Shown: one piece after another, positions 2,109-64,000 of the stretch | Layout of the letters: the number at the start of each line of letters is the position of its first letter | Position numbering within the stretch: the first letter of the stretch is position 1 | Origin: Dictyostelium discoideum | Taxonomy: Eukaryota | Length of the DNA stretch: 64,000 nt | Direction of reading: 5' to 3' | NCBI GenBank assembly: GCA_000004695.1 | Contig: CM000153.2 | Location: forward strand, 4,128,001 to 4,192,000 | Made by a program: the position numbers and the translations under genes | The notes under the pieces: generated by a model | Database searches by the model: none | What the model was told of the DNA's origin: nothing | Seen by the model: only the letters and a program-made list of their open reading frames with translations

Positions 2109-3316
2109 ATGGATGAATGTACACAAATTTCAAATGTACCAGATCAAGAATCAATTGAAAAGGTTGTAACACAAATTTCACCTCATCAAAAAACAATGGA
2201 CCCATCTTCAGTGGGCTTTGTTTATCATTGGATGTTTTCAATGATGGCATCAGCATTAAACCTCAATAAATTACCAAACATAAATAATGAAAATAATTTA
2301 ATAATCGATAATAATAATAGTAATAGTATTAATAATAATAATATTTTAAAAAATAAAAAAATAAAATCAGAAAATGACAGTAATAATAATAATAATAATA
2401 TTAATGAAAATAGTACAAATAAAGATGGTGAAAGTTGCATTCAATCTTTAAATGAAATCATTTTATCATCACCAGAGTGTTCATCATCATCATCCTCCTC
2501 CTCATCATTATCATCATCATTAAATATTGAAGAATCCGAAAAAATTAAAAATTGTGTAGATGATTGTGACCATAATCAACATCAAAATGAAAAACAAGAA
2601 AAATGTATTAACCAAGATAATAATCAAAATAATAATAATAATAATACTAGTACAATTCAACATTTTAATGAAATTAACTCTTTAAATATTCAAAATTTAA
2701 ATCAACCAAAGAAAACATTAATTTTAGATTTGGATGAAACTTTAGTTCATTCAACATTAAAACCAGTAACACATCATCAAATTACAGTTAAAGTTTTAAT
2801 TGAAGATATGGATTGTACATTTTATGTTATTAAAAGACCACATGTTGATTACTTTTTGGAAAAGGTTTCACAATGGTACGATATAGTAATTTTCACTGCC
2901 AGTATGCAACAATATGCCGATCCATTACTCGATCAATTAGATACTCATAAAGTTTTCAAAAAAAGATTATTTAGAGATGTATGTATTAATTAATTATAAT
3001 TTTTTTTAAAAATGAATTTTATTTTAACTCTTTATTTTTTTATTTTTTTTATTTTTAGTCTTGTTTAGAAAAACATGGAAATTTCGTAAAAGATTTATCG
3101 ATGATTGATCAAGATTTAACTTCAACTATTATTATTGATAATTCACCAATTGCATACTCGAATAACCTTGAAAATGCTTTACCAATTGATAATTGGATGG
3201 GTGATAATCCATCTGATACTTCTTTGTTATCATTGTTACCATTCTTGGAAATGATTAGACATGTTCAAGATGTTAGAAGTATCCTCTCTTTGAGGTTAAT
3301 TAATAATATGCAATAA
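2109..3316 (+). CDS. CTD small phosphatase-like protein (FCP1-homology/NIF domain). Two exons: join(2109..2978,3059..3316).
   Basis: Seen: ORF 2109..2993 contains the DxDxT phosphatase motif 'LILDLDETLVHS' and 'YVIKRPHVDYFLEKVSQWYDIVIFTAS'. A GTATGT donor sits at 2979, and a T-rich intron ends at AG 3057-3058. Exon 2, 'SCLEKHGNFVKDLSMIDQDLTSTIIIDNSPIAYS...NWMGDNPSDTSLLSLLPFLE', reads in phase and completes the NIF domain (FRD|SCL resembles SCP1 FRESCV). The N-terminus carries a poly-N/S low-complexity insert. Inference: family assignment rests on the SCP1/NIF motifs. Confidence 0.8.
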
Positions 3317-44639: not shown

Positions 44640-44707
<68 letters not shown>

Positions 44708-44906
44708 AAAAAATAAAATAAAATAAAATAAAATAAAATAAAAAAAATAAAATAAAAATATAATTAAAATAAAAGAACAATAAAAAATTAAATCATAAAG
44801 AGTAAATAGTAAATTTTATTGACTAAATTCTTAAAATTTAAAGAAAAATATTAATTTTATTTATTTATTTATTTATTTATTTTTTTTTTTTTTTTCTTTT
44901 TTCTTA

Positions 44907-44959
<53 letters not shown>

Positions 44960-45357
44960 CACCCAAACATCATATTATAATCGGATTTTTTTTTTCCCAA
45001 CCAACAAAAGTTTTCTATACAAATTTTCTTCACGGGGCATTTTTTTCTTGAGAATTGAGGAAATTGCGCCATCATTCATTTTCTAAGTAAAAATTAATTT
45101 TTTACAGAAAATTTTTTTTTTCTTTTTAAAACACACACTCCCCAAACCTTTTTTTTTTTTTAATTTTTTTAATTTTTTTCTTCTTGCAAACATAGCAATA
45201 TTTATAAACAATAATAAAATTTTTAGATAACATAAAAAATAATATTTTATATAAATCCTTATTTATTAATTAACTCAAAAATAATATTTGTAAATAATTT
45301 TTTTTTTATTCTAAAACACAAATTTTAAAAAAAAAAAAAAAAAAATAAATATTTAAA

Positions 45358-46823
45358 ATGTCTCATCACCATCATCATCATCACCGTAGAAGTAGTAGTG
45401 TTTCATCACCATCATCACATAACAACTATTACAGTGGGCATCAACAACAAACACAACCACAACAATATAATAATTATTCACTTGACCAAAATTATGATCA
45501 AATGAAAAATGAATATAATAATTTATCAGAACTTGTACATAACATATATAATTCATTAAATTCATATTGTAATTCAATAAAAGGTAAACATATCTAATAT
45601 CTATTATATATATATATTTATAAATATTAAATAATAAACTAATTTAATTTATTTATTATTATTATTATATAAATAGATATTTATTTAAATTCAAATAGTT
45701 TTATGAATAATGTTTCAAAATTATTTGGTAATGAACATCCATTATCAAAATATGGTAATGGTGTTTTAATGATGGCAGATGAAAGTTTTAAAGATTGGAT
45801 GGATAATCAATCACCAAACTTTCAAATGTTGGGTGACTATTGTTATGATTTAAATATTGTAAAATCTAAAATCGATAAAGTCGATCAACTATCATTAGAG
45901 TTATCCCATCAAAATTTAGATGAATACATTCAATTAAAGGATGAAGTTTTTAGAGATGTTTCAAATCAATTTCAAGCAAGAGTAACAAGATTCGATATAC
46001 CTTTAATCAATACTCAATTCTCTCTCCCAAGTTTATATCAATGTTTAAATTCAATACATGAAACAAATGGTACTGAACAATTACAACAATCAATTGAAAT
46101 TGCTAATCCTGTAATCTCTTTATCACCTGATAATACAATTGCAATTAATACTGTAAATGATAATAATAATAATGATAATAATAGTAATAATAGTACACCT
46201 GAAATTATGACACGTGTTGGTATACCACCACAATCACAAGCACAACAACCACAAGCACAACAACAACCACCACAACAACAACAAAGAGTTAATACAGCAT
46301 CAACATTTTCAAGTCCAACAATGTTTTTATCTAAACCTGTAAAAACAGAGGTTACATATGCTGCACCACCAAAAACTTTACAAAAATTACCTGGTTCAAG
46401 AGAGTATACTAGACAATCTGTACCAACACCACAACAACAATCACCTTTAAAACCTATAGCTAGACCAAATTCTTTACCAAATAATAATAATATCAACACT
46501 ACAGCAACACAACCACCATTAAGACCAACACCAGTACCAACACCAGCACCAGTTGTTGAGCAACCAACACCAAGTGCACCACCACCTCAAAATCAACCAC
46601 CAATTATAATGGGTAGACAAGTTTTACCTCATAATCCAAATAGTAGTAATAATAATAATTCAATGGATAGTGGTAGTGGAGTTATTTCACAACCACTAAG
46701 ACCAGTACCCCATAAAAGTATTCAAAAAGGCTTCGTAGCTAGTAATGTTAATAAACCTCCTTTATCACCTTCTACTTCAACTCCAAATTTACAACAATAT
46801 CAACCACCACAACAATCACAATC

Positions 46824-46869
<46 letters not shown>

Positions 46870-47148
46870 CCTTTATCACTATCAAATTCAACTCCAAATT
46901 TATATCAAACACAACAACAACAACAACAACAACAATCACCTCTACCTCCAAAACCAAGACCATCTGTACAATTATCATCATCAACATCTACTTCACAACC
47001 ATTAAGACCTCAACCACCAATTTCTCAACAACAAGAGCAACCACCATCTAGACCAAGATCATTATCACTATCTCAACAACAAACACCAACCCAATCATTT
47101 GCAAGACCTTTACCAACAGCATTAAACAATAACAATAATAATAATTAA
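45358..47148 (+). CDS. P/Q-rich protein family member 1 (565 aa). join(45358..45583,45677..47148).
   Basis: Seen: exon 1 'MSHHHHHHHRRSSS...YDQMKNEYNNLSELVHNIYNSLNSYCNSIK' ends at a GTAAAC donor (phase 1). The acceptor AG lies at 45675-76. Exon 2 is 'DIYLNSNSFMNNVSKLFGNEHPLSKYGNGVLMMADESFKDWMDNQSP...FDIPLINTQFSLPSLYQCLNS...', followed by a long Pro/Gln/Ser/Thr-rich tail with poly-Q runs. The two ORFs in the track (45358..45597 and 45703..47148) are its exons. Confidence 0.7.
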
Positions 47149-47430
47149 GGGAAAAAACACTTAATATTAATATAATATAAAATATACCCCCAAGTACGTT
47201 AAAATTTAAAATTATAATAAAATTAATTTTTTTTTTCATTATTTTTTTTTTATTTTTTTTTAATTTTATTTTATTTCTTTGTTGTGGTGTGTTTAAACCA
47301 AAAAAAGAATTTTCATTAAGAGTAATTAAAATTAAAAAGTCTAAAATTTAAAAGGTTTTTCTTTTTTTTTTTCTTTGAGACTATTTACTTTTTAACAATA
47401 AATTTTTTTTTTTTATTTTTAGTCCAAACA

Positions 47431-48466
47431 ATGTCACCTATAGAAAATATAAATAATAATAATTTCATTTCAAAAGATTTTAATTTTCAAATTATAAAAA
47501 ATGAATTTAGTTTTCATTATGATAAAATTATTTTAATTTATAAATTAATTAATAATCAAGAAATTTCAAATAAAGGTATAACTTTTATTTAAAAAAAAAA
47601 AAAAAAGTTTTTTATAACCCATTTTTCATAATTAATTAATTAAATTTTTTTTTTTTTTTTTTTTTTGCCCATAAAATAAAGAATATATTAAAAATATTAT
47701 AAATTATTATGAAAAGGATAATTCTTGTACAAATTCATTAATTTATAATTATATTTCAATAATATCAAATGATATTGAAAGTTGTTTTGCTAATTGGAGA
47801 AATAGTTTAAAGAATGAATTTCAAATTATTAATAAATATTGTTTAGAATTAAATGTATTAAATGAAAAATTTGAAAATTTTTGTCAATTAGAGATTAAAT
47901 TATTAAATTCTATTTCAAGACAACAACAACAACAACCACCTATTGGATTTACTAAAAATGAATATTTTATTTTAAAATCTGAAATATTTAAAATGGTAAG
48001 AATATTATTAGAAAAAAGAAATTTAAATTTTGATGAACCATTAAAAAATATTCAAATTTCATTACCAATTTTATATGAAAATTTAAAATTAATTCATTTA
48101 AATTCACATAAATTAATTAATAAAGAAAAACAACAGTTAAATGAAAATGAAAATGAAAATATATCATTACATAATCAATATATAAATTCATTATCACCTG
48201 ATAATTCATTTTTAAAAATTAAACAATTGGATGGTGCTTCGTCTTTGTCTTCTGCCATTTTTAAACCATTACCACCATTACCGCAACCAAAACAATTACC
48301 ATCAATACCAATTTCACAAATAACTTCACCACAAAAAGAACCACAACAACAATTAAAAAAATTAAGACCTGCACCAATTCCAAAAGAACTTGAAAATAAC
48401 TATGTAATTTCTGTAACTCCAACTTCATCACAGGTTACAAACAATTTTTCTAACCAAAATGTCTAA
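47431..48466 (+). CDS. P/Q-rich protein family member 3 (309 aa). join(47431..47575,47682..48466).
   Basis: Seen: exon 1 'MSPIENINNNNFISKDFNFQIIKNEFSFHYDKIILIYKLINNQEISNK' ends at a GTATAA donor (phase 1). The acceptor AG lies at 47680-81. Exon 2 is 'EYIKNIINYYEKDNSCTNSL...CQLEIKLLNSISRQQQQQPPIGF...PLPPLPQPKQLPSIPISQITSPQKEPQQQ...'. The two-exon architecture and the conserved '(K/Q)NE(F/Y)..IY(N/K)(S/L)(L/I)N...KG' exon-1 end are shared with members 1 and 2. Confidence 0.6.
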
Positions 48467-48725
48467 AAATTAAAAATATAAATTAAAAAAAAAAAAAGTA
48501 GATCCCGATTCGTTATAGATATTTTCACATAAAAAAAAAAATTTATTTTTAATTTTTTAAATTTTTTTTTTAATTTATTTTTTTTTTTATTTTTTTTTTT
48601 ATTTTTTTGTGTTTGTTAAATTATAAGAAACAAATAAAAATAAAAAAAATAATTCACATTGCGCCTGAAAAAAAAAAAAAAAAAAAAACATTTAATTTTT
48701 TATATATATAAAAAAAATTAAAGAA

Positions 48726-48875
48726 ATGATAAAAAATACAGCTCCCAACAAATTTGTAGGCAATAATAAAATAGTTGACCCAAATTATGAAACATTAAAA
48801 AATGAATTTTTCAAATTATCTCAAAATATATTAACAATTTATAATTCATTAAATAATAATAATAAAACTATGAAA

Positions 48876-48923
<48 letters not shown>

Positions 48924-50160
48924 ATTTATTATTTCACATTGAATTTATTTATTAAAAATATGTTTTAATTATTATTATTATTAATATTTAGATATTTACT
49001 TAAATTCAAATAGTTTTTTAAATAATTTATCAAATTATTATCATAATAGTAATAATAATAATAATAATAATAATGGGTATGGGACGACTACTGAACAACA
49101 TCCATTAGGTGATTATAGTAATCAAATTTTAATAAATGTTAATAAAACATTCGAAGAATGGGAATTTAATCAATCTAGTCATTTTCAATCATTGAATGAT
49201 TATTGTAATCAAATTGAACAAATCAAATCAAAGATTGAAAGATTAGATAAACAAATGAACACAGAATCACAAGAATATCAAACTTTAAAAAATCAAATAT
49301 TTAAAGATGTTCAACAACTTTTCGATTCCAGAGTTAATCAATTTGATATACCATTAATTAATATACAATTCTCATTCAATAGTTGTTTACAATCTTTAAA
49401 TTCAAATCATAATGATTCTTCATTCTTACTTCAACAACCAATTAATTTTAATAATCCCGTACAATCATTACAACCATTAAATAATAATAGTGGTGTTACA
49501 CCATTAAGACATGCACCACCTGTAAATAATCATCTACAACAAATACCAAGACCAACCACTTCATATACACCACCAAAACAATATGTACCATCACCTCAAC
49601 AAAAACATCATCAATATACACCACCTCAACCATATACACCACCTCAACAACAACAACAACAACACCAATATACACCACCTCAACCATATAATCCACAACC
49701 ACAACAATATCAAGAACAAATGTATGAAAAATCACAAGAACAACCACCAGAACAACCACCAAATTCAGGACCAAGAAAAGGAAAATCACAATTGAAACAA
49801 ATTGAAAGACCCACTCAAATAGAGCTACCTGATAAATCAGTGATTGAACCAAATCTAAAGAGAAAGCCAGGTGACTTTTTAAGAGATCCTAATGCTCCAC
49901 GTTTTGTTCCTGCTTCATCTCAACAGCAGCAACAACAACAACAACAACAACAACAACATAGTAATAAACCTTCAATGGAACATCATTCAATGTCATTAAG
50001 TGAATCTTATAAACAAAAGGTTGTACTTTCAAATGATATAAATGAGCATGGATCACAAGGAAGTGATAATCATTCCAACACCACTTCTAAACCACCTGTG
50101 AGAAAATTAGATAATACAATAAGAACACCACCATCAAGACCTACTCCTTTACCAAAATAA
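48726..50160 (+). CDS. P/Q-rich protein family member 2 (439 aa). join(48726..48876,48992..50160).
   Basis: Seen: exon 1 'MIKNTAPNKFVGNNKIVDPNYETLKNEFFKLSQNILTIYNSLNNNNKTMK' ends at a GTAAAA donor (phase 1); a poly-A tract follows. The acceptor AG lies at 48990-91. Exon 2 'DIYLNSNSFLNNLSNYYH...' starts identically to member 1's exon 2 ('DIYLNSNSFMNN...'). It continues 'FDIPLINIQFSFNSCLQSLNS' (member 1: 'FDIPLINTQFSLPSLYQCLNS') and then a Pro/Gln-rich tail with 'YTPPQPY' repeats. Confidence 0.7.
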
Positions 50161-50266
50161 TAATAAATTGGAAACACATGCGCACTTTATCGTCTCCTTA
50201 AATATTTATATATTTTAATTGGGATTCTAATTTCATTTTATTTATTTTTTTTTAATTATTTTACCA

Positions 50267-50299
<33 letters not shown>

Positions 50300-50617
50300 T
50301 TTGCATTTATTATTTAAAAATTAAAAAAAAAAAAAATATATAATAAAATTTAAAAATATTAATTTTCGACCTCGTTATTGATTAATGGGCACTCTCGAAA
50401 ATTTAACCAATAAAATAATATCTCCCTTTTCATTGGACGCTTCTAAATTTTTTTTTTTTTTTTCATGGCTATTTGGTGTCATTTGCAGAATATTTTTTTT
50501 TTTTTTTTTTTTTTTATAATAAAATTTTTTTTTTTTTTTTTTTTTTTTTATTCGTGATCTATTTTTTTTATATTAAGAATAATATTTTATTTCTTTTTTT
50601 TTTTTTTTTTAATATAT

Positions 50618-51111
50618 ATGTTTTTCATTAAAAATAGAGTAGTTATTTTGATTTTCTTTTTATTTATTTGTTTCAAATTGAATCAAAGCCTAATTCAATC
50701 AGAATGTAGATATTTTAAAAATATTTTTATTTTTTTAAATTTTTTTTTTTTTGGGATTTGTTTTTAACCACTTTTTTTTTTTTTTCATTTTTTCATTTTT
50801 TTCACGGTCAAACAAAGATGAATGTTCATTTAATTTATTAAGTAAAATATTAAATGTTTCGCTTGAATACAGTAGGGATTCAAAAAATAGATATGATTTT
50901 TGTGGTTCAAGTAAAAAAGGTTTTGTATCGATGGTATGTGATGGGGAAAATGATTTCATTTCATCTATATCATTAGGTAGTAATAGAAGTACAATATTAT
51001 CATCTTCCGATTTTAATTGTTTTTCTTCGATTAGTATTATGTTTGTATTTAAATTTTTTAATTGTCATTATTATTATCATTCTTATTATTATTTTTTTAC
51101 AAATTATTAAT

Positions 51112-51148
<37 letters not shown>

Positions 51149-51580
51149 CAATTATATCTTAATTATAAATTTGAAAAAAATTTTTTATATGGATTTTCAA
51201 AAATAATTCCACACTTTTTATCATATTCTACAGATGAATCATTATTTGATTTGGATTTTAATATTGATAAAATGATATTAATAGATAGATTAGTTATTAA
51301 AAAATTAAAAATAAAAAAAAATTATAATCTTTATTTTTCAAGTTTAAAAAATGTCAGTATTTTCGAACTTGAATATGGACCATCAAATTTTCAAATTAAT
51401 TATATAAATGATTTATTTGAATTTAAAAATTTCATATCAATAAATATTTTTTCAAGTAGTATACCTTCAATGAATAATATAAATATTCTAGAATTGTAAG
51501 TAAAAATAATTTTATTTTTTTTTTATTTTTCAAATTAATAATAATAATAATAGTAATAAAAATTATTAATTAATGATAAA

Positions 51581-51656
<76 letters not shown>

Positions 51657-53976
51657 GTAGAGTTTTAAATTTATTACCAAGTTTTAATTTAAAATCATTT
51701 TCCAACTTTTCAACATTTTCAAATGTTGAGTCTATAAATTTAAATCCTACAAATCCATCAATGATTTTCCCATTCCCAATAGGATTGTGTAATCTTAATT
51801 TTAATAATAGTTTGGGAAGTTTGTAAGTTTTCTTTCTTTTTTTTTTTTTTTTTTTTTAATTTTTTTATTCTAATAATTTTGATAAAATCCACATTCTAAT
51901 ATAAATTATAAAGAGAAATAAACTACCAAATAGATAAACCATTAGATTTTATAGACCTTTCAGCATTGGGAAATTTATTTTTATTGTAAGTTTTTTTACT
52001 AATATTCATTATCATTACATTTTCTTTAATTTATTAATTAATTTATTATTATTTTTTTTTTTTAAAAAATAAAGTTTAATGCCAAATGTGGGACCTTTAT
52101 TTAATGTGGATGGTGAATTTCCTTTTATTAATATGATTAATAGATTTTATATAAGATTGTAAGTGTTTTTTTATATTGGTGAAAAACATTTACATTTAGA
52201 TTTTAATTATTTTAAATTTAATTAATTTTTTTTTTTTTTTTTTTTTAAATTAGTGAATTTTCAAATGGAAGAATTAATAGTTTTAATTTTATAAATGCAA
52301 CAACATTGACAATGGAAAATAATGGTATGGCAGGTACGATACCAACAGCTTTTCCTGGTGATAGGAACATTAATCTAAAGGGTAATAAGTTGGTAGGAGA
52401 AATTGATGAAAGTTGGTGTGGTAATTTATTTGATATTAGTGATAACTATATAAGTGGTGAGCTTCCATCATGTTTTAAATGTCATTATTTACAACCATTA
52501 ATTAGTTCAACACTATCTGGTAATAGATTTAAAAATTTCGATCCAAATAATTTAGAACCATGTTTAGATTTAGAATTAAATTTAGAATATAATCATTCTT
52601 TCAACAGATCATTAACATTATATGGTAAAAATCTTGGTCCATTTGATAATTCATTAAGAATTTATGATATAGATAATATTGGACCTATTACTATTATAGC
52701 ATGCAAAGAATATAAGATTAGAAAGTTTACTTGGGTACCGGGAGATGCACCAAAAGCAATTAATTTAACTTTTCCTTTTTTACCACAAGGCCCAAGAACA
52801 TTTGAAATCTCTGCATATAATGAATTTTTACCACATATCGATAGTATAATTAGATATTCAGATTATTTTATTATTAGTGGTAAATACTTTGCATATAATA
52901 AGAGTGTTATTAATGTTTTAATTTCAAATCATTCATGTTCAATTATAACAAGTAATTTCAATGAAATTCAATGTTATCTTTCAAATTCAAATCAAATAAT
53001 AAATAGTAATAGCAATAAATTAATTGCAAGTATTATTCAAGTTATGAATGTTTCAAGTACATTTAATTTCACAGCGAATCAAGCATGTAATGGTAATAAT
53101 TGTCCAATCGCAGATTGTAATAAATATGGTGAATATAATTATGAAAGTGGTGTTTGTGATTGTTATTCAAATGAATGGAGAGGCTATTCATGTGAATTAA
53201 AATCATTAAATTGTTTAAGTAATGATTGTAGCGGTAATGGCTATTGTAATAGTATCATTGGTAAATGTCAATGTAATAAAAATAGAGCATTCGATGATTG
53301 TAGTGGTATATTATGCAATGATGGTAATGGTTGTTTTAATGGAGGTAATTGTAATTTTCAAATTGGGGTTTGCAATTGTTCATCCAAATGGATTGAAAGT
53401 TCAGGATGTGCAACACCCAAACAATCAATTGATTCACAACAATTAGTACAAACAAAAAACAATCAAATATTAACATTAATTGGTTGGTTTGGTAATATTA
53501 ATATATTTTTAACAGTATTAATCGATGGTAAAATTTGTGACATCACTTCAAATAATAATGAAACCATTCAATGTATTCCACCAAATTATCATTGTGATTT
53601 CATAAAGACCTCATCATTAGAATTATCAGTTTCTCAAAATAATTACATATGGAATGGAGTTTATAATCCAATATTTATTAATGGCTGTAGTAATAGCAAT
53701 GAAGGCAGTAGTGGTATCAATAACAGTTATAGTAATAGCAATGAAAAAGAAAATTCATCATTATCATACAAAAATCAATCTTTAGTTTTAATCCTATCAA
53801 TTGTGTTATCTTTAATTTTATTAGGTTTATTAGGTTTAGTTTTCTTTAAAAAATTAGTCATAAAAAATAATTATTTAAATATAAATAATATTGAAAATAA
53901 AATAAGACCGAGTGAATATGATAATGATCAACCAGATGAATTTTTAAAAAATAAAATTAAATTAATTGACCTTTAG
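50618..53976 (+). CDS. LRR + EGF-like + single-TM surface protein, tandem family unit 1 (899 aa, 7 exons). join(50618..50705,50818..51040,51148..51495,51661..51822,51914..51985,52075..52158,52254..53976).
   Basis: Seen: a signal peptide 'MFFIKNRVVILIFFLFICFKLNQSLIQSE'. All seven phases are consistent (1,2,2,2,2,2). Exon 7 carries plant-type LRR motifs ('MENNGMAGTIPTAF..LKGNKLVGEIDESW..ISDNYISGELPSCF'). It then has four Cys-rich EGF/tenascin-like repeats ('CNGNNCPIADCNKYGEYNYESGVCDCYSNEWRGYSCE','CLSNDCSGNGYCNSIIGKCQCN','CNDGNGCFNGGNCNFQIGVCNC'). A TM helix 'LVLILSIVLSLILLGLLGLVFF' and a short cytoplasmic tail '...QPDEFLKNKIKLIDL*' follow. Confidence 0.75.
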
Positions 53977-54504
53977 AGGCAATACCCCAAATTAAAAAAA
54001 AAAAAAAAAAAAACAGGTTCCCTTAGAGATACTCCAATTAGTTGGGTGGGTTGTTTTATTTCTCAAATTTAATTGTTTTTTTTTTTTTTTTTTTTAGTTG
54101 CTTCATTTTTACAAATAAATAATAAAAAATTTTATTCAAAAAAAAAAAAAAATTAATTAGTCAACCCTTAAAAAATATATGAATTCAAGGTGAATCTAAC
54201 ATATTTTAATATTTATATGGTCGCAAAATAAAAAAAAGGCAGAGGGATTTCACTGAAAGTTTTGGTGCATTTTTTAAAAAAAATAAAAAATAAAAAAAAA
54301 AAAAATTTAAAAAAAAATCTTAAAAGCGATAAAACTTTTCTTAGGATGAAAATTTTTTTATTTTTTTATTTTTTTTTTTTTTTTATTTTTTTTTTTTTCG
54401 AATTTAAAAATATCTCAAATGATTTAACAAGTGCGGGCAAAACAAAATTGATTTTTTTTTTTTTTTGTTTTTTTTTTTTTTTTTTTTTTAAAAAATCAAA
54501 AGGG

Positions 54505-55560
54505 ATGAAAATGAAAAGTAGAGGGTTCATATTATTTTTTATAATCATACTTTCAAATTTAAGCCAAGCAACTCTAGTTGAATCAGAATGTAAAAATAAT
54601 AGAATTTTAATAACACAAATAAATAAATAAATATTAATTCTTTTATTTTTATTTCTTATATTAGATAAATGTTTATATAATTTATTAAGTAAAATTTTAA
54701 AAGTATCAAAAAACTTTTATAAAGAATCTAATAATAGATATGCATTTTGTCAGACTGCTGATAAATCAGATTTTCTTTGGGCACAATGTTCTGAAGGTTC
54801 AGTTGAAAATATTTTTTTAGGTTCCAATAATAAAAGTACAATTTTTTCAAACAATGATTTTAATTGTTTTTCTTCTTTGCAAAATATGTAAGTCCTAACA
54901 ATAACAATAATAATAAATATCATTTTATTAATACTTTTTTTTTTTAAAAATAAAAAATAAAAAAAAGAGAAATATTTTTTAAATACAAATTTGAAAGAAA
55001 TTTTTTATTTGGGTTTTCAAGTAATTTATTTAATTTTAAATCACATTCTTCAGATGAATCATTAATTGATATGGATGTCAATGCTAACAAAACAATTTCA
55101 ATTAAATATTTATATATTAATCAATTAATAATTAAAAGAGATTTTAATATTTATTTTTCAAATTTTGTTAATGTCCGAAATTTTGAAATTGACACACTCC
55201 AATCAAACTACCAAATTAATTATATAAATGATTTGGTTAGTTTTAAATGTAATTTTGATACAATTTCATTTTCTTCAAATAATATACCATCAATGAATAA
55301 TATACTAGTAAATAATTTGTAAGTTTTTATTATTCTATTCTTTTTTTTTTTTTTTTTTTTAATATGAAATAATACTAAATTAATTAATCTATATTTATAT
55401 AATAGATATATAAAACTACTTTCAAATTTTAATATTGATTCATTTTTCAACTTTTCAACAAATACAAACATTGGTACTATAAAATTAAATTCATCAGATC
55501 CATCAATGCTTTTTCCATTTCCACCCCCTTCTTCTGTTCAATCATTGTAATTATTAATTA

Positions 55561-55648
<88 letters not shown>

Positions 55649-57732
55649 AACTATTATATTATTATAAATAAGAGTAATAAATTATCTAATAGAGAAGCCA
55701 TTGAATTTTATTGATTTATCTAAATTTGAAAAATTAATTTATTTGTAAGTATTTTTTTATATTTTAAAATGTTTCTTTTCTAAACTTTTCACTAACTTTT
55801 TTTTATAATTTATAATTATTAAAAGAAAAATTCCAAATGTTGGAGTTTTATTTAATGTAGATGGTGAATTACCATTCATTAATATGCAAAATATTTATAA
55901 TTTGTAAGTATTTTTTTTTTTTTTTTTTTTTTTTTTCAGAATTTAATGATGATGATATTTAACTATTTTACATATTTTTAATTAGCGAGTTTTCAAATGG
56001 GAAAATCAATTATTTAAATTGGACAAAATTACCAACCGAAGTGGGATATTTAACAATGGAAAATAATGGTATGACAGGTACGATACCAACAAAGTATCCA
56101 GATTATTTATCCTACCTTTATGTAAAGGGGAATAAGTTGACAGGAGAAATTGATGAAAGTTGGTATGGTAAATTATTTGATATTAGTGATAACTATATTA
56201 GTGGTGAGCTTCCATCATGTTTTAAATGTCATTATTTACAACCATCAATTAGCTCAACACTATCTGGTAATAGATTTAAAAATTTCGATCCAAATAATTT
56301 AGAACCATGTTTAGATCTAGAATTAAATTTAGAATATAATCATTCTTTCAACAGATCATTAACATTATATGGTAAAAATCTTGGTCTATTTTTTAATTCA
56401 TTTAGTATTAGCAGTGTTAATAATGCTTTACAACCTTTGCCTATTGATATATGCAAAGAATATAAGATTAGAATGCGACCTACAGAACCAGGTGATGCAC
56501 CAAAAGCAATTAATTTAACTTTTCCTTTTTTACCACAGGGTTCAAAAACATTTCAAATCTCTGCATATAATGAATTTTTACCACAAATCGATAGTATAGT
56601 TAGATATTCAGATTATTTTATTATCAGTGGTAAATACTTTGCATACAATCAGAGTGTAACTACTGTTTTAATTTCAAATCATTCATGTTCAATTATAACA
56701 AGTAATTTCAATGAAATTCAATGTTATCTTTCAAATTCAAATCAAATCATTAATAATGAAGAATTAATTACAAGTATTATTCAAGTTATGAATGTTTCAA
56801 GTAAATTTAATTTCAGAGTGAATCAAGCATGTAATGGTAATAATTGTCCAATTGCAGATTGTAATAAATATGGTGAATATAATTATGAAAGTGGTGTTTG
56901 TGATTGTTATTCAAATGAATGGAGAGGCTATTCATGTCAATTAAAATCATTAAATTGTTTAAGTAATGATTGTAGCGGTAATGGTTATTGTAATAATATC
57001 ATTGGTAAATGTGAATGTAATACAAATAGAGTATTCGATGATTGTAGTGGTATATTATGTAATAATGGTCATGGTTGTTTTAATGGAGGTAATTGTAATT
57101 TTCAAAATGGAGTTTGCAATTGTTCATCCAAATGGATTGAAAGTTCAGGATGTGCAACACCCAAACAATCAATTGATTCACAACAATTAGTACAAACAAA
57201 AAACGATCAAATATTAACATTAATTGGTTGGTTTGGTAATATTAATATATTTTTAACAGTATTAATCGATGGTAAAATTTGTGATATCATTTCAAATAAT
57301 AATGAAACCATTCAATGTATTCCACCAAATTATCATTGTGATTCCATAAAGACCTCATCATTAGAATTATCAGTTTCTCAAAATAATTACATATGGAATG
57401 GAACTTATAATCCAATATTTATTAATGGCTGTAGTAATAGTAATGAAGGCAGTAGTGGTATCAATAACAGTTATAGTAGTAATAGTAATGAAAACAATCA
57501 AAAAGAAAATTCATCATTATCACCCAAAAATCAAATTCTAGTAATAATCATATCAATTATATTATCTTTAATTTTATTAGGTTTATTAGGTTTAATTTCC
57601 TTTAAAAAATTAATCAAAAAAAATAATTATTTGCATTTAAATAATATTGAAAATAAAATAAGGCCGAATAAAGATGATAGTGGTCAACCAGATGAATTTT
57701 CAAAGAATAAAATTAAACTAATTAACCTTTAG
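54505..57732 (+). CDS. LRR + EGF-like + TM surface protein, family unit 2 (898 aa). join(54505..54589,54665..54887,54968..55318,55406..55546,55673..55744,55826..55903,55986..57732).
   Basis: Seen: 'MKMKSRGFILFFIIILSNLSQATLVESE' ends at a GTAAAA donor. Exon 2 is 'YKCLYNLLSKILKVSKNFYKESNNRYAFCQ...FNCFSSLQN' with a GTAAGT donor. Exon 3 '...SDESLIDMDVNANKTISIKYLYINQLIIKRDFNIYFSNFVNVRNFEID...SMNNILVNN' ends at 'tt|GTAAGT'. Exons 4-6 are short (141, 72 and 78 nt), all phase 2. Exon 7 is 'FSNGKINYLNWTKLPTEVGYLTMENNGMTGTIPTKYP...', then EGF repeats, a TM 'LVIIISIILSLILLGLLGLISF' and '...QPDEFSKNKIKLINL*'. Exon sizes and phases match unit 1. Introns 4-5 contain long (ATT)n runs (55561-55650). Confidence 0.75.
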
Positions 57733-58250
57733 AGGTAAAATCCCAAAAAAACAGAAAAAAAAAAAATAAAAAAAATAAAAAAAATAAAAAAAAAAAAAAA
57801 AAAATTTGAAATTATCTATATCTGTGGGTCTTGATAATATCCATTATTTTATTCACAATAATCATTTTTTTTTTTTTTTTTTAATTTTGGGTTTTTTTTT
57901 AATTTATTTTTAGATTTTTTTTTTTTTTTTTTGGCTTTTTTTTTTTAATGGGCTCAAAAAAAAAAAAAAAAATTAAAATAAAATAAAATAAAACCCAAAA
58001 ATAAACTTTTTTAAATAAACAAATAAATAGGACACATAATCAAACTCCAAAATTTTTATTTTTAATTTTTTTTTGTTTAAGCATATTTTATTATTAGGAG
58101 CCGCATAAAAATAAAAAAAATAAAAGTAAAAAAAAAAGAGGCGACAAACCCACCAGCGCCCATAAAATTACTTTTCACCACTTTAATGTGAAGTGAACAA
58201 AAAAAAAAAATTGTTTTGTTTTTTTTTTTTTTAAACTCAAAATCTTTGTG

Positions 58251-59300
58251 ATGAAAAGAAGAGGGTTTATTCTATTTTTCTTTTTATTCATATTTTTTGA
58301 ATTAAACCAAACAACTATTGTTGGATCAGAATGTAACTATATTAAATTTATTTATTTATTATTAAAATTCTAATTATTATTTTTTTTTTTATTAGATAAA
58401 TGTTTATATAATTTATTAAGTAAAATATTAAACGTATCAAAAAACTTTTATAAAGAATCTAAAAATAGATATGCACTTTGTCAGACTGTTGATAAATCCG
58501 ATTTTATTTGGGCATATTGTAATGAAGAAGGTTTAGTTAATGATATTGTGTTGCGTGGTGATAATAAAAGTACAATATTTTCAAACAATGATTTTAATTG
58601 TTTTTCTTCTTTGCGAAGTATGTAAGTAATAAAAAATAAAATTAATTATAGTTTATTATAATTTATTATTATTATAATTTTAATACTTAATTATATCATT
58701 TTATTTATATTTTTCAAATAAAGAGACATATTTTTTAATTATAAATTTAAAAGAAATTTTTTACTTGGATTTTCAAATAATATAGTTAATTTCAAATCAC
58801 GTTCTTCAGACGAATCATTAATTGATATGGATGTCAATATTAACAAAACAATAGCAATTCAAATTTTAAATATTAATCAATTAATAATTAAAAGAGATTT
58901 TAATGTTTATTTTTCAAAATTTGTTAATGTCCGAAATTTTGAAATTTACACACTACGATCAAAACATCAAATTAATTATATAAATGATTTGGTTAATTTA
59001 GGATGTAATTTTGATATAGTTTCGTTTTCTTCGAATAATATACCATCAATGAAAAATATACAATCAAATACATTGTAAGTTTTTATTTTATTTTATTTTA
59101 TATTAAATAATATTAAATTAATAACCTAAATTTATTAAATAGAAATATAAATTTAAATTCAAATTTTAATATTGATTCATTTTCCAACTTTTCAACATAC
59201 ACAAAAATAGGTGCTATAGAATTAACTCCATCAAATCCATCAATGATTTTCCCATTCCCACCCCCATCTTGTGTTAATGTTTTGTATTTATTATTTATTA

Positions 59301-59361
<61 letters not shown>

Positions 59362-61097
59362 CATTATTATTATTATCATTATTATTATCATTGTTTTTTA
59401 TTATTTATTATTGACTATTGATTTATTTTTAACTATTGTTATTATATAAAGAAAAATAAATTATCAAATAGATAAACCATTGGATTTTATTGATTTATCT
59501 AAATTTGAAAATCTGTATGATTTGTGGGTATTTTTTATTTTTAAATAATTTTTGTTTTCTAAACTTTTCACTAATTTTATTTTTATAATTTTTAATTATT
59601 AAAAGAAAAATACCAAATGTTGGAGTTTTATTTAATGTAGATGGTGAATTACCATTCATTAATATGCATGTTATGGATACTAGTATTTTGTAAGTTTTTT
59701 TTTATTATTTATATTCTTGTTTTCATTGTAATTATGGTACGATACCAACAAAGTTTCCAGATAAATTATCAATTCTTTATTTAAATGGTAATAAGTTGAT
59801 AGGAGAATTCAATGGAAATTGGTATGGTGAAGATTTTGATATTAGCGATAACTATATTGATATTTATCTTCCATCATGTTTTAAATGTCACTATTTACAA
59901 CCATCAATTAGCAGACCAATATCTGGTAATAGATTTAAAAATTTCGACCCAAATAACTTAGAACCATGTTTAAGCATAGATTTAAATCTTTCATATAATA
60001 ACTCCACTGATCAATTACTATTGTATGGTAGTGATCTTGGATTTCCAACATCAATCATGATATTAGATAACCCAATTTTAGTATTTGATTATGGTGAAAA
60101 ATGTAAGGAAATTAGAATTTTAAAGCCTAGATGGAAGATAGGAGAAGTACCAAAAGCAATTAATGTTACATTTCCTTTTTTACCACAAGGTCCAAGAACA
60201 TTTGAAATCTCTGCATATAATGAATTTTTACCACAAATCGATAGTATAGTTAGATATTCAGATTATTTTATTATCAGTGGTAAATACTTTGCATACAATC
60301 AGAGTGTAACTACTGTTTTAATTTCAAATCATTCATGTTCAATTATAACAAGTAATTTCAATGAAATTCAATGTTATCTTTCAAATTCAAATCAAATCAT
60401 TAATAATGAAGAATTAATTACAAGTATTATTCAAGTTATGAATGTTTCAAGTAAATTTAATTTCAGAGTGAATCAAGCATGTAATGGTAATAATTGTCCA
60501 ATTGCAGATTGTAATAAATATGGTGAATATAATTATGAAAGTGGTGTTTGTGATTGTTATTCAAATGAATGGAGAGGCTATTCATGTCAATTAAAATCAT
60601 TAAATTGTTTAAGTAATGATTGTAGCGGTAATGGTTATTGTAATAGTATTATTGGTAAATGTCAATGTAATACAAATAAAATATTCGATGATTGTAGTGG
60701 TATATTATGTAATAATGGTAATGGTTGTTATAATGGTGGTAATTGTAATTTTCAAAATGGAATTTGTAATTGTTCATCCGAATGGATCGAAAGTTCAGGA
60801 TGTGCAACACCCAAACAATCAATTGATTCACAACAATTAGAACAAACAAAAAATGATCAAATACTAACATTAATTGGTTGGTTTGGTAATATTAATATAT
60901 TTTTAACAATACTAATCGATGGTAAAATTTGTGATATCACTTCAAATAATAATGAAACCATTCAATGTATTCCACCAAATTATCCGTGTGATTTCATAAA
61001 AAACTCATCATTAAAATTATCAGTTTCTCAAAATAATTACATATGGGATGGGATTTATAATCCAATATTTATCAATGGTTGTAGTAGTAGTGAAGAC

Positions 61098-61191
<94 letters not shown>

Positions 61192-61457
61192 ATAGTAATA
61201 GTAGTAGTAATAGTGGTAGTAATGAAAACAAAAAAGAAAAAGAAAATTCATCATCTAAAAAATTAATTATAATAAGTTTATCAATTTTATTTTCTTTAAT
61301 TTTATTAGGTTTATTAGGTTTTGGTTTCTATAAAAAAACAATTAAAAATAATTATTTAAATTTAAATTATATAAAAATTAAAATAAACTCGAATGAATAT
61401 GATGATGACCAACGAGATAATTTTTCAAAAAATAATATAAATTTAGTTAACCTTTAA
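58251..61457 (+). pseudogene. LRR + EGF-like + TM family unit 3, pseudogene. Exon-like blocks: 58251..58332, 58396..58621, 58724..59074, 59143..59284, 59452..59523, 59606..59689, then a remnant ORF 59796..61457.
   Basis: Seen: exons 1-3 are intact and in phase ('MKRRGFILFFLFIFFELNQTTIVGSE', '...MDVNINKTIAIQILNINQLIIKRDFNVYFSKFVNVRNFEIYTLRSKHQ...'). Exon 4 has a 1-nt insertion, 'ggtgctatagaAattaactcc', where unit 4 has 'ggtactatagaattaactcc'. This creates a frameshift and an in-frame TAA at 59276-78. Relative to unit 4, ~110 nt are deleted at the exon 7 acceptor and start ('ttttcattgtaatta[...]tggtacgataccaacaaag'). No in-phase acceptor remains, and every candidate AG gives an immediate stop. 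The remnant exon 7 ORF also carries an (AGT)~35 poly-Ser expansion (61090-61200) that the other units lack. Confidence 0.65.
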
Positions 61458-61883
61458 AGTAAAAAAAAAATAAAAAATAAAAATAAAAAAAGAATAAAAT
61501 TCTTTTTTTTGTGGGTTTGAATCTATATCTGCCTTATATCTATGGGTCTTTGATAATATCTCTTTTTTTTTTTTTTTTTAATTATCTAACTAAATGCATA
61601 GACAACCTTCAAAACACAACCACTTAAATGTGGTTTTTGTTTTTTTTCGAAATTGTGGAGATATTTTTTTTTACGAAAAAAAAAAAGAAAAAAAGAAAAA
61701 AAAAAAAAAAAATTTTTTAATATGACAATCACTCCTAAGGTTTCCATTAAAAAAGGACTTTTTTTTTTTTTTTGTTTCCAATCACATATAGTTTATTATA
61801 AACAGTGTTTTATTTTTATCTTTTATCTTCCCAACGCAAAACAATTTTTTTTTTTTTTTTTTTAAAAACTCAAAATCTTTATA

Positions 61884-62717
61884 ATGAAAAGAAGAGGTTT
61901 TATACTGTTTTTCTTTTTATTCATATTTTTAAAGTTAAACCAAACAACTATGGTTGAATCAGAATGTAATATTTTAAATTTATTTATTTATTATTTTATT
62001 ATTAAAATTCTAATTATTATTTTTTTTTTTTTTTTATTAGATAAATGTTTATATAATTTATTAAGTAAAATATTAAACGTATCAAAAAACTTTTATAAAG
62101 AATCTAAAAATAGATATGCACTTTGTCAGACTGAAGATAAATTCAATTCTAAATGGGCAGAGTGTTCTAATGGTTTGGTTGGATTTATTTATTTGGGTGG
62201 TAATAATAAAAGTACAATATTTTCAAACAATGATTTTAATTGTTTTTCTTCTTTGCATTTTATGTAAGTAATAATAATAATAATAAAAATAAAAATAATT
62301 ATAAAAATAATTTTAATACTTAATAAATATCATTTTATTAATATTTTTCAAAAAGAGAAATATTTTTTAATTATAAATTTGAAAGAAATTTTTTATTTGG
62401 ACTCCCAAATAATTTAGTTAGTTTAAAATCACATTCTTCAGATGGATCATTAATTGATATGGATGTCAATGCTAACAAAACAATATCATTTAATTTTTTA
62501 TATATTTATCAATTAACAATTAAAAGAGATTTTAATATTTATTTTTCAAATTTTGTTAATATTGTAGATTTTGAAATTGAAACCCTCGAATCAAACTATC
62601 AAATTAATTATATAAATGATTTGGTAAAGTTTAAAATTTTTAATCATGTTTCATTTTCTTCAAATAATATACCATCAATGAATTATATACAAACATATAT
62701 GTTGTAAGTTTTTAATA

Positions 62718-62749
<32 letters not shown>

Positions 62750-62938
62750 TTAAATAATACTAAATTAATAATCTAAATTTTATTAAATAGAAATATAAAT
62801 TTAAATTCAAATTTTAATATGGAATCATTTTCCAACTTTTCAACATACACAAAAATAGGTACTATAGAATTAACTCCATCAGATCCATCAATGATTTTCC
62901 CATTTCCATTCCTTCCTTCTATTCAATCATTGTATTTA

Positions 62939-63030
<92 letters not shown>

Positions 63031-64000
63031 GACTTTTGATTTATTTTATTATTATAATTATTATAATATAAAGAACAATAAATTATCAAATAGATAAACC
63101 ATCGGATTTTATTGATTTATCTAAATTTGAAATTTTAACGACTTTGTAGGTATTTATTATATTTAAAATGTTACTTTTCTAAACTTTTCTCTAACTTTTT
63201 TTAATAATTATTAATATAATTTAAAAGAAAATTGACAAATGTTGGAGTTTTATTTAATATAGATGGTGAATTACCATTCATTAATACGCAGAATATTTAT
63301 AATTTGTAAGTTTTTTTTATTTATTTATATTTTAGTTTTCATTGTAATTAAAGTATTAATTTTATCTACATCCTTTTTTCAATTAGAGAGTTTTCAAATG
63401 GGAAAATCAATTATTTAAATTATACAAATTTACCACCCAATTTACGTTATTTAACAATGGAAAATGATGGTATGACAGGTACGATACCAACAAAGTATCC
63501 AGATAATTTTTTAACCCTTTTTTTAATGGGTAATAAGTTGACAGGAGAACTCGATGAAAGTTGGTTTGATAAAATCTATGATTTTGATATTAGCGATAAC
63601 TATATTGATATTTATCTTCCATCATGTTTTAAATGTCATTATTTACAACCATCAATTAGCAGACCAATATCTGGCAATAGATTTAAAAATTTCGACCCAA
63701 ATAATTTAGAACCATGTTTAAGCATAGAATTAAATCTTTCATATAATAATTCCACTGATGAATTACTATTGTATGGTAGTGATCTTGGAGATTCAATGTC
63801 AATGAAGATATTAGATAACCCAATTTTAGTAATTGTTTATGGTGAACTATGTAAAGAATATAGAATTTTTAAACTTGCATGGAAGATAGGAGAAGTACCA
63901 AAAGCAATTAATTTAACATTTCCTTTTTTACCACAAGGTCAAAGAACGTTTGAAATCTCTGCATATAATGAATTTTTACCACAAATCGATAGTATAATTA
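61884..64000 (+). CDS. LRR + EGF-like + TM family unit 4, 3'-partial (runs off the window). join(61884..61965,62041..62263,62356..62703,62791..62931,63074..63145,63228..63305,63387..>64000).
   Basis: Seen: 'MKRRGFILFFFLFIFLKLNQTTMVESE' ends at a GTAATA donor. Exon 2 is 223 nt, like units 1 and 2. Exon 3 is '...MDVNANKTISFNFLYIYQLTIKRDFNIYFSNFVNIVDFEIETLESNYQINYINDLVKFKIFNHVSF...'. Exon 4 is 'LNINLNSNFNMESFSNFSTYTKIGTIELTPSDPSMIFPFPFLPSIQS' (141 nt); it ends at a non-consensus GTATTT donor, followed by a (TTA)n-rich intron. Exons 5 and 6 are 72 and 78 nt. Exon 7 is 'LEFSNGKINYLNYTNLPPNLRYLTMENDGMTGTIPTKYP...', still open at 64000. Confidence 0.7.

Follow-up and report, generated by a model that had tools for sequence, protein, structure and literature searches.

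The window, by which we mean the whole stretch of 64,000 nucleotides analyzed here, was placed by protein search on chromosome 4 of Dictyostelium discoideum AX4. Its GC content is ~20%, and its introns are short and very AT-rich. Self-comparison of the window revealed, within 50.6–64 kb, four tandem plus-strand genes of seven exons each that encode ComC-like LRR / TIG / EGF membrane proteins (Table 1). Our analysis concerns the third of these. An earlier note on this DNA had delimited it correctly, as one of four tandem paralogs running from the ATG at 58251 to the TAA at 61455–61457, and had described it as a recent pseudogene carrying three independent lesions, namely a frameshift in exon 4, a deletion reaching into exon 7, and an expanded serine tract. 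Units 2 and 4 are known in AX4 as DDB_G0286329 and DDB_G0286211, both of them named "EGF-like domain-containing protein" in UniRef; unit 3 has the seven-exon structure in common with these two paralogs, and its DNA identity to the neighboring units is 80–90%. The gene comC itself stands apart from the members of the array and has a role in development. A search of the literature on DDB_G0286329, DDB_G0286211, and DDB_G0286217 found no publications, nor did it return anything relevant for comC / EGF / LRR, and a protein search against 5.8 billion sequences gave no close match to unit 3, the best being 87% identical.

Table 1. Positions of the array units, the features of unit 3 and the orthologs of unit 3 (window positions unless a locus is named)
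Feature	Position	Strand	Remarks
Unit 1	~50618–53976	+	7-exon model, clean ORF of 899 aa
Unit 2	54511–57732	+	DDB_G0286329; 7-exon model, clean ORF of 896 aa
Unit 3	58251–61457	+	ATG at 58251, TAA at 61455–61457
Unit 4	61884 to >64000	+	DDB_G0286211; clean ORF up to the window end, which cuts the gene
Unit 3 exon 1	58251–58332	+	ATG; donor GTAACT; collinear with units 2 and 4 and P0001
Unit 3 exon 2	58396–58621	+	226 nt, open
Unit 3 exon 3	58724–59074	+	351 nt, open; start of LRR_ComC domain
Unit 3 exon 4	59143–59283	+	141 nt, intact
(ATT)n microsatellite	59288–59445	+	Within intron 4, non-coding
Unit 3 exon 5	59452–59523	+	72 nt, open
Unit 3 intron 5 donor	59524–59529	+	GTGGGT; GTAAGT in L001, GTAGGT in L002 and unit 4
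Unit 3 exon 6	59606–59689	+	84 nt, open; private NMHVMDTSIL signature
Unit 3 intron 6 remnant	59690–59735	+	46 nt; GTAAGT donor kept, acceptor lost
Deletion junction	59734–59736	+	GTAATTA/T/GGTACG, from alignment to L001, L002, and units 1, 2, and 4
Unit 3 exon 7 remnant	59736–61457	+	573 open codons, closed by TAA at 61455–61457
Candidate cryptic intron	59683–59760	+	GTATTT...CAG, 78 nt; 881 aa, or 878 aa with intron 5 donor 59515
Candidate cryptic intron	59690–59845	+	156 nt, from the GTAAGT donor to a TAG acceptor; 855 aa with the frame kept
Tract identical to unit 2 (56555–56995)	60205–60645	+	441 bp, 0/441 sites differ
Pure (AGT)31	61098–61190	+	Poly-Ser in extracellular stalk, in frame
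Ortholog P0001	L001:10001–13479		Syntenic with unit 3; intact, 928 aa
Ortholog P0104	L002:4781–8224		Syntenic with unit 3; intact, 934 aa

The Pfam call for the family combines LRR_ComC (PF24141), IPT/TIG, Beta-sand_ComC_2nd (PF24143), and EGF_TEN. The product of unit 3 exons 1–6 scored 52.2 bits against LRR_ComC (gathering cut-off 27), in comparison with 67.1 bits for unit 2. The match spans profile positions 18–213 of 288, whereas that of the ortholog P0001 spans 17–286, and the part absent from unit 3 consists of the deleted segment and everything after it. In the remnant of exon 7, the TIG domain scored 31.7 bits (cut-off 20.9), Beta-sand_ComC_2nd 27.1 bits (cut-off 27), and EGF_TEN 37.4 bits (cut-off 65), and Cys-rich repeats of the form CxxxxxC...GxC were seen in the translation. 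Judged by eye, the N-terminus of unit 3, MKRRGFILFFFLFIFF, is hydrophobic and signal-peptide-like, and a putative transmembrane segment, LIIISLSILFSLILLGLLGFGFY, lies near the C-terminus.

Coding Sequence and Splice Sites of Unit 3

Exons 1–6 of unit 3 form 318 stop-free codons collinear with the orthologous protein P0001, and the open remnant of exon 7 carries the last LRRs, the TIG / beta-sandwich part, the probable EGF repeats, the Ser-rich stalk, the putative transmembrane segment, and a short tail. Across the ~2.6 kb of coding sequence, the deletion is the sole hard disabling change. The remaining splice sites are all present, with a possibly weakened donor at intron 5: GTGGGT is unique to this intron among the 23 donors of the array and may be a second, soft lesion. 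All of the family acceptors (n = 23) are AAG or TAG, 13 of them AAG, and the family introns are 63–168 nt long with a GC content of 3–16%.

Of the three lesions described before, the deletion alone is real. The single-A insertion attributed to exon 4 was an error in reading the frame. The exon has 141 nt and no indel in units 2, 3, and 4, and the same length in both orthologs; the motif GAAATTA, in which the extra A was placed, is absent, the actual sequence being ATAGAATTAAC (GAATTA), which is the same in unit 4 and in both orthologs. The TAA that was thought to follow from the frameshift is an off-frame triplet at 59275–59277, where the coding frame reads GTT AAT GTT. The (AGT)n tract is present as claimed (TRF reported 47 imperfect copies over 61081–61221), but it is ordinary in-frame sequence, and it makes the stalk longer only than those of units 1 and 2: the Ser/Asn stalk measures 60 aa in unit 3, 63–67 aa in the orthologs, and 31–34 aa in units 1 and 2. 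A lesion by expansion was ruled out by the gapless alignment of the tract to an equally long, complex S/N-rich stretch of the orthologs, and on this alignment the tract is a homogenized microsatellite rather than an expansion. Such microsatellites are commonplace in Dictyostelium coding sequence.

Deletion at the Start of Exon 7

In comparison with the orthologs, unit 3 lacks 134 nt (corresponding to L002:6332–6465), and the same gap, of ~126 nt, appears in comparison with units 1, 2, and 4. Intron 6 has thereby lost its final 44 nt, among them the acceptor AG, and exon 7 its initial 90 nt, equal to 30 codons. The deletion and the loss of the acceptor had been recognized correctly in the earlier note, but the size given there, ~110 bp and ~35 codons, has to be corrected to these values. 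The residues lost from exon 7 (EFSNGKINYL.FTNLPPNL.YLTMENNGMT) are a conserved stretch of ~1.4 LRR repeats, and the pattern F-S-N-G-x-I-N...L-x-M-E-N-x-G in the deleted part is at least 90% conserved among 19 other family members. At the junction, the T at 59735 is a 1-nt mismatch or filler. Slippage between direct repeats was considered as the mechanism of the deletion and not adopted: the breakpoints offer no more than an A-GTA microhomology, which is imperfect, and the junction carries a mismatch of 1 nt.

Through a 90%-identity protein cluster, we reached a second D. discoideum assembly, GCA_054883475.1 (locus tags ACTFIT). Its locus, L003, contains the same five-unit array and is 99.53% identical to positions 44685–64000 of the window, the 18 differing sites all lying in homopolymer runs or in A/T-rich non-coding sequence. 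Within unit 3, the two assemblies are identical at 3,207 of 3,207 nt, the deletion junction and both microsatellites included. The second assembly comes from a project that produced de novo assemblies from Nanopore and Illumina data for AX2-214, for the diverged isolates CR116C and OT3A, and for sister species (Holland et al., PNAS 2025; PMC12745789), and at another locus AX2 is 99.5% identical to AX4 (PMC12745789). We infer that the ACTFIT assembly is that of AX2-214; if so, the identity of unit 3 in the two assemblies means that the deletion predates the split of AX2 from AX3/AX4 within the NC4 lineage.

Predicted Splicing Outcomes

The consequences of the lost acceptor were predicted from the sequence. 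Retention of the intron 6 remnant would lead to the TAA at 59691–59693 and a reading frame of 319 codons. Splicing to the AG at 59752–59753 would remove an intron of 64 nt, shift the frame, and stop translation at codon 328; this acceptor is family-like, since it is AAG as in 13 of the 23 known cases and since an intron of 64 nt fits the length range of the family. From the donor at 59690, the nearest AGs (59753, 59760, and 59795) all give stops at 319–328 codons.

The claim that no in-phase AG remains was nevertheless inexact, as the donor at 59690 combined with the AG at 59844–59845 yields 855 aa in frame, and 29 GT...AG combinations in unit 3 preserve the frame. Both candidate cryptic introns listed in Table 1 have a GC content of ~23–24%, which is exon-like in comparison with the introns of the family. 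The annotation of the AX2-like assembly predicts an 878-aa product across unit 3. We rebuilt this call by brute-force enumeration of introns and obtained 34 solutions, of which 1 was plausible: it combines the cryptic 59683–59760 intron with an intron 5 donor at 59515, bypassing GTGGGT. An exact-sequence database look-up of the reconstructed 878-aa protein gave no match.

Orthologs and Age of the Deletion

Each of the two intact orthologs sits directly after the ortholog of unit 2, and both have the NMHVMDTSIL signature of exon 6 in common with unit 3. Exon 7 has 132 diagnostic sites outside a tract of sequence exchange described below, and 117 of them are of the unit-3 type. A chimeric assembly of two units was rejected on the same count and because both halves of unit 3 best match the same ortholog. 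As the syntenic orthologs in the two diverged isolates are intact and carry the exon 6 signature of unit 3, the deletion is derived in the NC4 lineage.

The earlier note had taken paralog identity of >90% as proof that the loss is recent. This reasoning is unsound: units 2 and 3 have a 441-bp tract without a single difference (Table 1) against a divergence of 10.6% outside it, and the tract, to judge from this contrast, is the product of gene conversion. Paralog identity is not a dating tool here because the two units exchange sequence in this manner. As for the direction of the conversion, the run tested (60401–60645) holds one diagnostic site only. The orthologs give a different scale, the protein identity between the isolates and AX4 being ~97.5% for a nearby housekeeping rRNA dimethylase and ~87% for unit 3. 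A "recent" loss is thus one that followed the split from the two diverged isolates and is not necessarily very recent.

We estimated a dN/dS of 0.58 for the unit 3 (AX4) branch and of 0.28 and 0.42 for the intact alleles. The counts are small, with 49 nonsynonymous to 20 synonymous changes on the AX4 branch and 30 to 21 on the other two branches pooled; the direction is suggestive, compatible with a short period of relaxed constraint, and is not decisive. A dN/dS of 0.58 without a second hard lesion implies that unit 3 either died very recently or is still alive.

Discussion

We interpret unit 3 as a non-processed, lineage-specific pseudogene with a single lesion, that is, a disabled allele of a gene for a ComC-like type-I membrane protein, in the NC4-derived lineage, and give this reading a probability of roughly 0.7; alternatively, it is at best a crippled allele. 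As in a non-processed pseudogene, homology and intron–exon structure are kept, the canonical ORF is blocked, and the lesion is genuine. Neutral decay would be marked by several lesions and a dN/dS of ~1, and unit 3 has one hard lesion and a dN/dS below that value. The description as a young pseudogene is probably right, but the basis on which it was originally made, three lesions, was wrong. A loss restricted to the lineage is better supported by the intact syntenic orthologs, the lack of a second hard lesion, and a dN/dS still below 1. In the sequence of events that we propose, the 134-bp deletion would have arisen after NC4 split from the lineages of the two isolates' alleles and before AX2 separated from AX3/AX4, stripping intron 6 of its acceptor and exon 7 of 30 codons and leaving the strong GTAAGT donor at 59690 in place. 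The main product would then be a truncated, secreted fragment with no TIG or EGF part, no stalk, and no transmembrane segment; this fragment probably has no function and may be degraded. Unit 3 otherwise looks intact and, through gene conversion, would still be exchanging sequence with unit 2.

Two further explanations concern the nature of the damage. A tandem array with gene-conversion tracts is hard to assemble, and the deletion might on that account stem from an error in the reference assembly or from the cloning of AT-rich DNA; the earlier note had itself allowed for the collapse of a repeat. We regard this as highly improbable: an independently made assembly, produced de novo from Nanopore and Illumina reads (PMC12745789), contains an identical unit 3 over all 3,207 nt, the breakpoints have no common repeat that could cause a collapse, and both flanks of the deletion are of the unit-3 type. 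Even less credence can be given to an older pseudogene damaged several times over by frameshift, deletion, and repeat expansion. The deletion and the soft change of the intron 5 donor to GTGGGT are the marks of damage that would agree with it, against which stand an exon 4 free of indels and in-frame stops, a Ser tract that keeps the frame and does not exceed the length seen in the orthologs, and a coding sequence that is stop-free throughout with a dN/dS still at 0.58.

A more serious contender, though an unlikely one, is that unit 3 has remained functional, splicing having moved after the deletion to a cryptic donor/acceptor pair that yields an in-frame receptor of 855–881 aa with an LRR solenoid shorter by 2–3 repeats; unit 3 would then be a structural variant and not a pseudogene. 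The many frame-preserving combinations offer the means for this, and two of them respect the repeat structure of the protein: the 59683–59760 intron drops ~42 aa, close to two LRRs of 22 aa, and the 59690–59845 intron drops 66 aa, exactly three. The GTATTT donor needed for the former is also the donor of intron 4 in both unit 3 and unit 4, and the automated annotation of an independent assembly arrived at a product of 878 aa that the same pair reproduces. All other exons are open, and dN/dS is below 1. On the other hand, the canonical GTAAGT, only 7 nt further downstream, should outcompete the cryptic GTATTT. The acceptor at 59760 is CAG, a type absent among the 23 acceptors of the family, and the intron that it would close is exon-like, with 23% GC; for the acceptor at 59845, six AGs lie upstream. 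The reconstruction of 878 aa has no exact database match, and the homology search found no protein close to unit 3. Should unit 3 nonetheless be alive through cryptic splicing, the ComC-like array could be a second diversifying surface-receptor locus comparable to tgr, a broader proposition that we consider decidedly doubtful; if it were true, partly disabled copies would be raw material or conversion donors within the array.

Returning to unit 3 as a probable pseudogene, its loss is an ordinary death of a gene copy within one strain lineage. The value for annotation is that there is one genuine lesion, not three, and that it is common to the AX4 reference and the inferred AX2-214 assembly. 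As the lesion is genuine and common to both, unit 3 should be treated as probably null in knock-out and expression studies.

In the order of its domains, unit 3 conforms to the ComC type, with a signal-like N-terminus followed by LRR_ComC, TIG / beta-sandwich, probable EGF repeats, Ser/Asn stalk, and putative transmembrane segment; it differs from its ComC-type relatives in that the acceptor of intron 6 and 30 conserved LRR codons are gone and the canonical ORF is broken. Alleles with a deleted splice acceptor in general lose the 3' splice site and, by intron retention or the use of a cryptic AG, run into a premature stop, and unit 3 was probably inactivated in the same way. Unlike such alleles, unit 3 has also lost 30 codons, and a rescued transcript would still encode an altered LRR domain.

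A further parallel is with the strain-variable pseudogenes in the tandem tgr families of Dictyostelium surface receptors, which evolve by birth and death (PMC12745789; bioRxiv 10.1101/2025.10.22.684067). The two sources do not appear to discuss the ComC-like array. Like tgr, the array consists of tandem genes for TIG-containing type-I membrane proteins, and, as in tgr, other isolates keep an intact version of a copy that is probably dead in the laboratory strain. The number of copies varies between isolates, with at least seven gene calls at L001 and at least six at L002 in comparison with five at L003. Gene conversion takes place, and the protein identity of 87%, in comparison with ~97.5% for the housekeeping gene, points to faster divergence. 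The ComC-like array differs from tgr in belonging to the LRR_ComC family.

Gene Conversion and Copy Number in the Array

Units 2 and 3 of the array share a stretch of 441 bp with 100% identity, while their divergence in exon 7 outside this tract is 10.6%. As perfect identity over such a length stands against the divergence of the remaining exon, the alignment indicates a gene-conversion event between the two units in the lineage of the window. The number of units also varies among isolates. Counting the gene calls of the family within ~23 kb, we found at least seven and at least six in the loci of the two diverged isolates (L001 and L002, 23.5 kb each) and five in the AX2-like locus (L003), the additional units being located between the orthologues of unit 3 and unit 4.

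Upstream of the array, GC skew is strongly negative (-0.36 to -0.40) across a region covering two ORFs, for which no match was found in Pfam. The identity of this flank to the matching flank of L001 is just 84.7%. In long homopolymer runs, the window has 4-28 nt more than the independent AX2-like assembly, with the largest gap at a T run; one of the two assemblies, the reference or the Nanopore-based one, has misjudged the length of these runs.

Coordinates of the features in the window
Feature	Position	Detail
Negative GC skew	46000-50000	
ORF	45703-47148	
ORF	49192-50160	
Homopolymer length differences	44926, 48888, 51121, near 51614, others	28 nt at the T run near 51614
Unit 1 ATG	50618	
Unit 1 intron 1 donor	50706-50711	GTAGAT, atypical
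Unit 1 intron 2 donor	51041-51046	GTTTGT, atypical
Unit 2	54511-57732	
Identical tract, unit 2	56555-56995	
Unit 3 intron 5 donor	59524-59529	GTGGGT
Identical tract, unit 3	60205-60645	
Unit 4	61884-64000	

Splice Donors and Gene Models

Unit 3 has the weakest-looking donor of the array at intron 5, where the orthologues and unit 4 have GTAAGT or GTAGGT; this donor may represent a second, soft lesion that was absent from the earlier note. The ATG of unit 1 lies 9 nt upstream of the point where the unit alignment starts, and its 7-exon reading frame is open for 899 aa despite the unusual donors of introns 1 and 2; the AX2-like gene call at this position is equally long.

The conserved 7-exon structure is not followed by the AX4 reference models of units 2 and 4, which are probably misannotated. 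The 850-aa model of unit 2 (DDB_G0286329) leaves out 46 aa across the exon 2/3 junction, and the AX2-like annotation has 896 aa, the length of the 7-exon model built here. In the model of unit 4 (DDB_G0286211), the peptide FINFIYILFSIR derives from an intron, and 10 aa where exons 2 and 3 meet are missing, as is most of the transmembrane segment. A fifth paralogue, DDB_G0286217, is found in AX4 downstream of the window end. Its AX4 model starts inside exon 6 and has only 573 aa, compared with 882 aa in the AX2-like annotation at this position; this could reflect an N-terminal truncation of the AX4 model or damage in the 5' exons.
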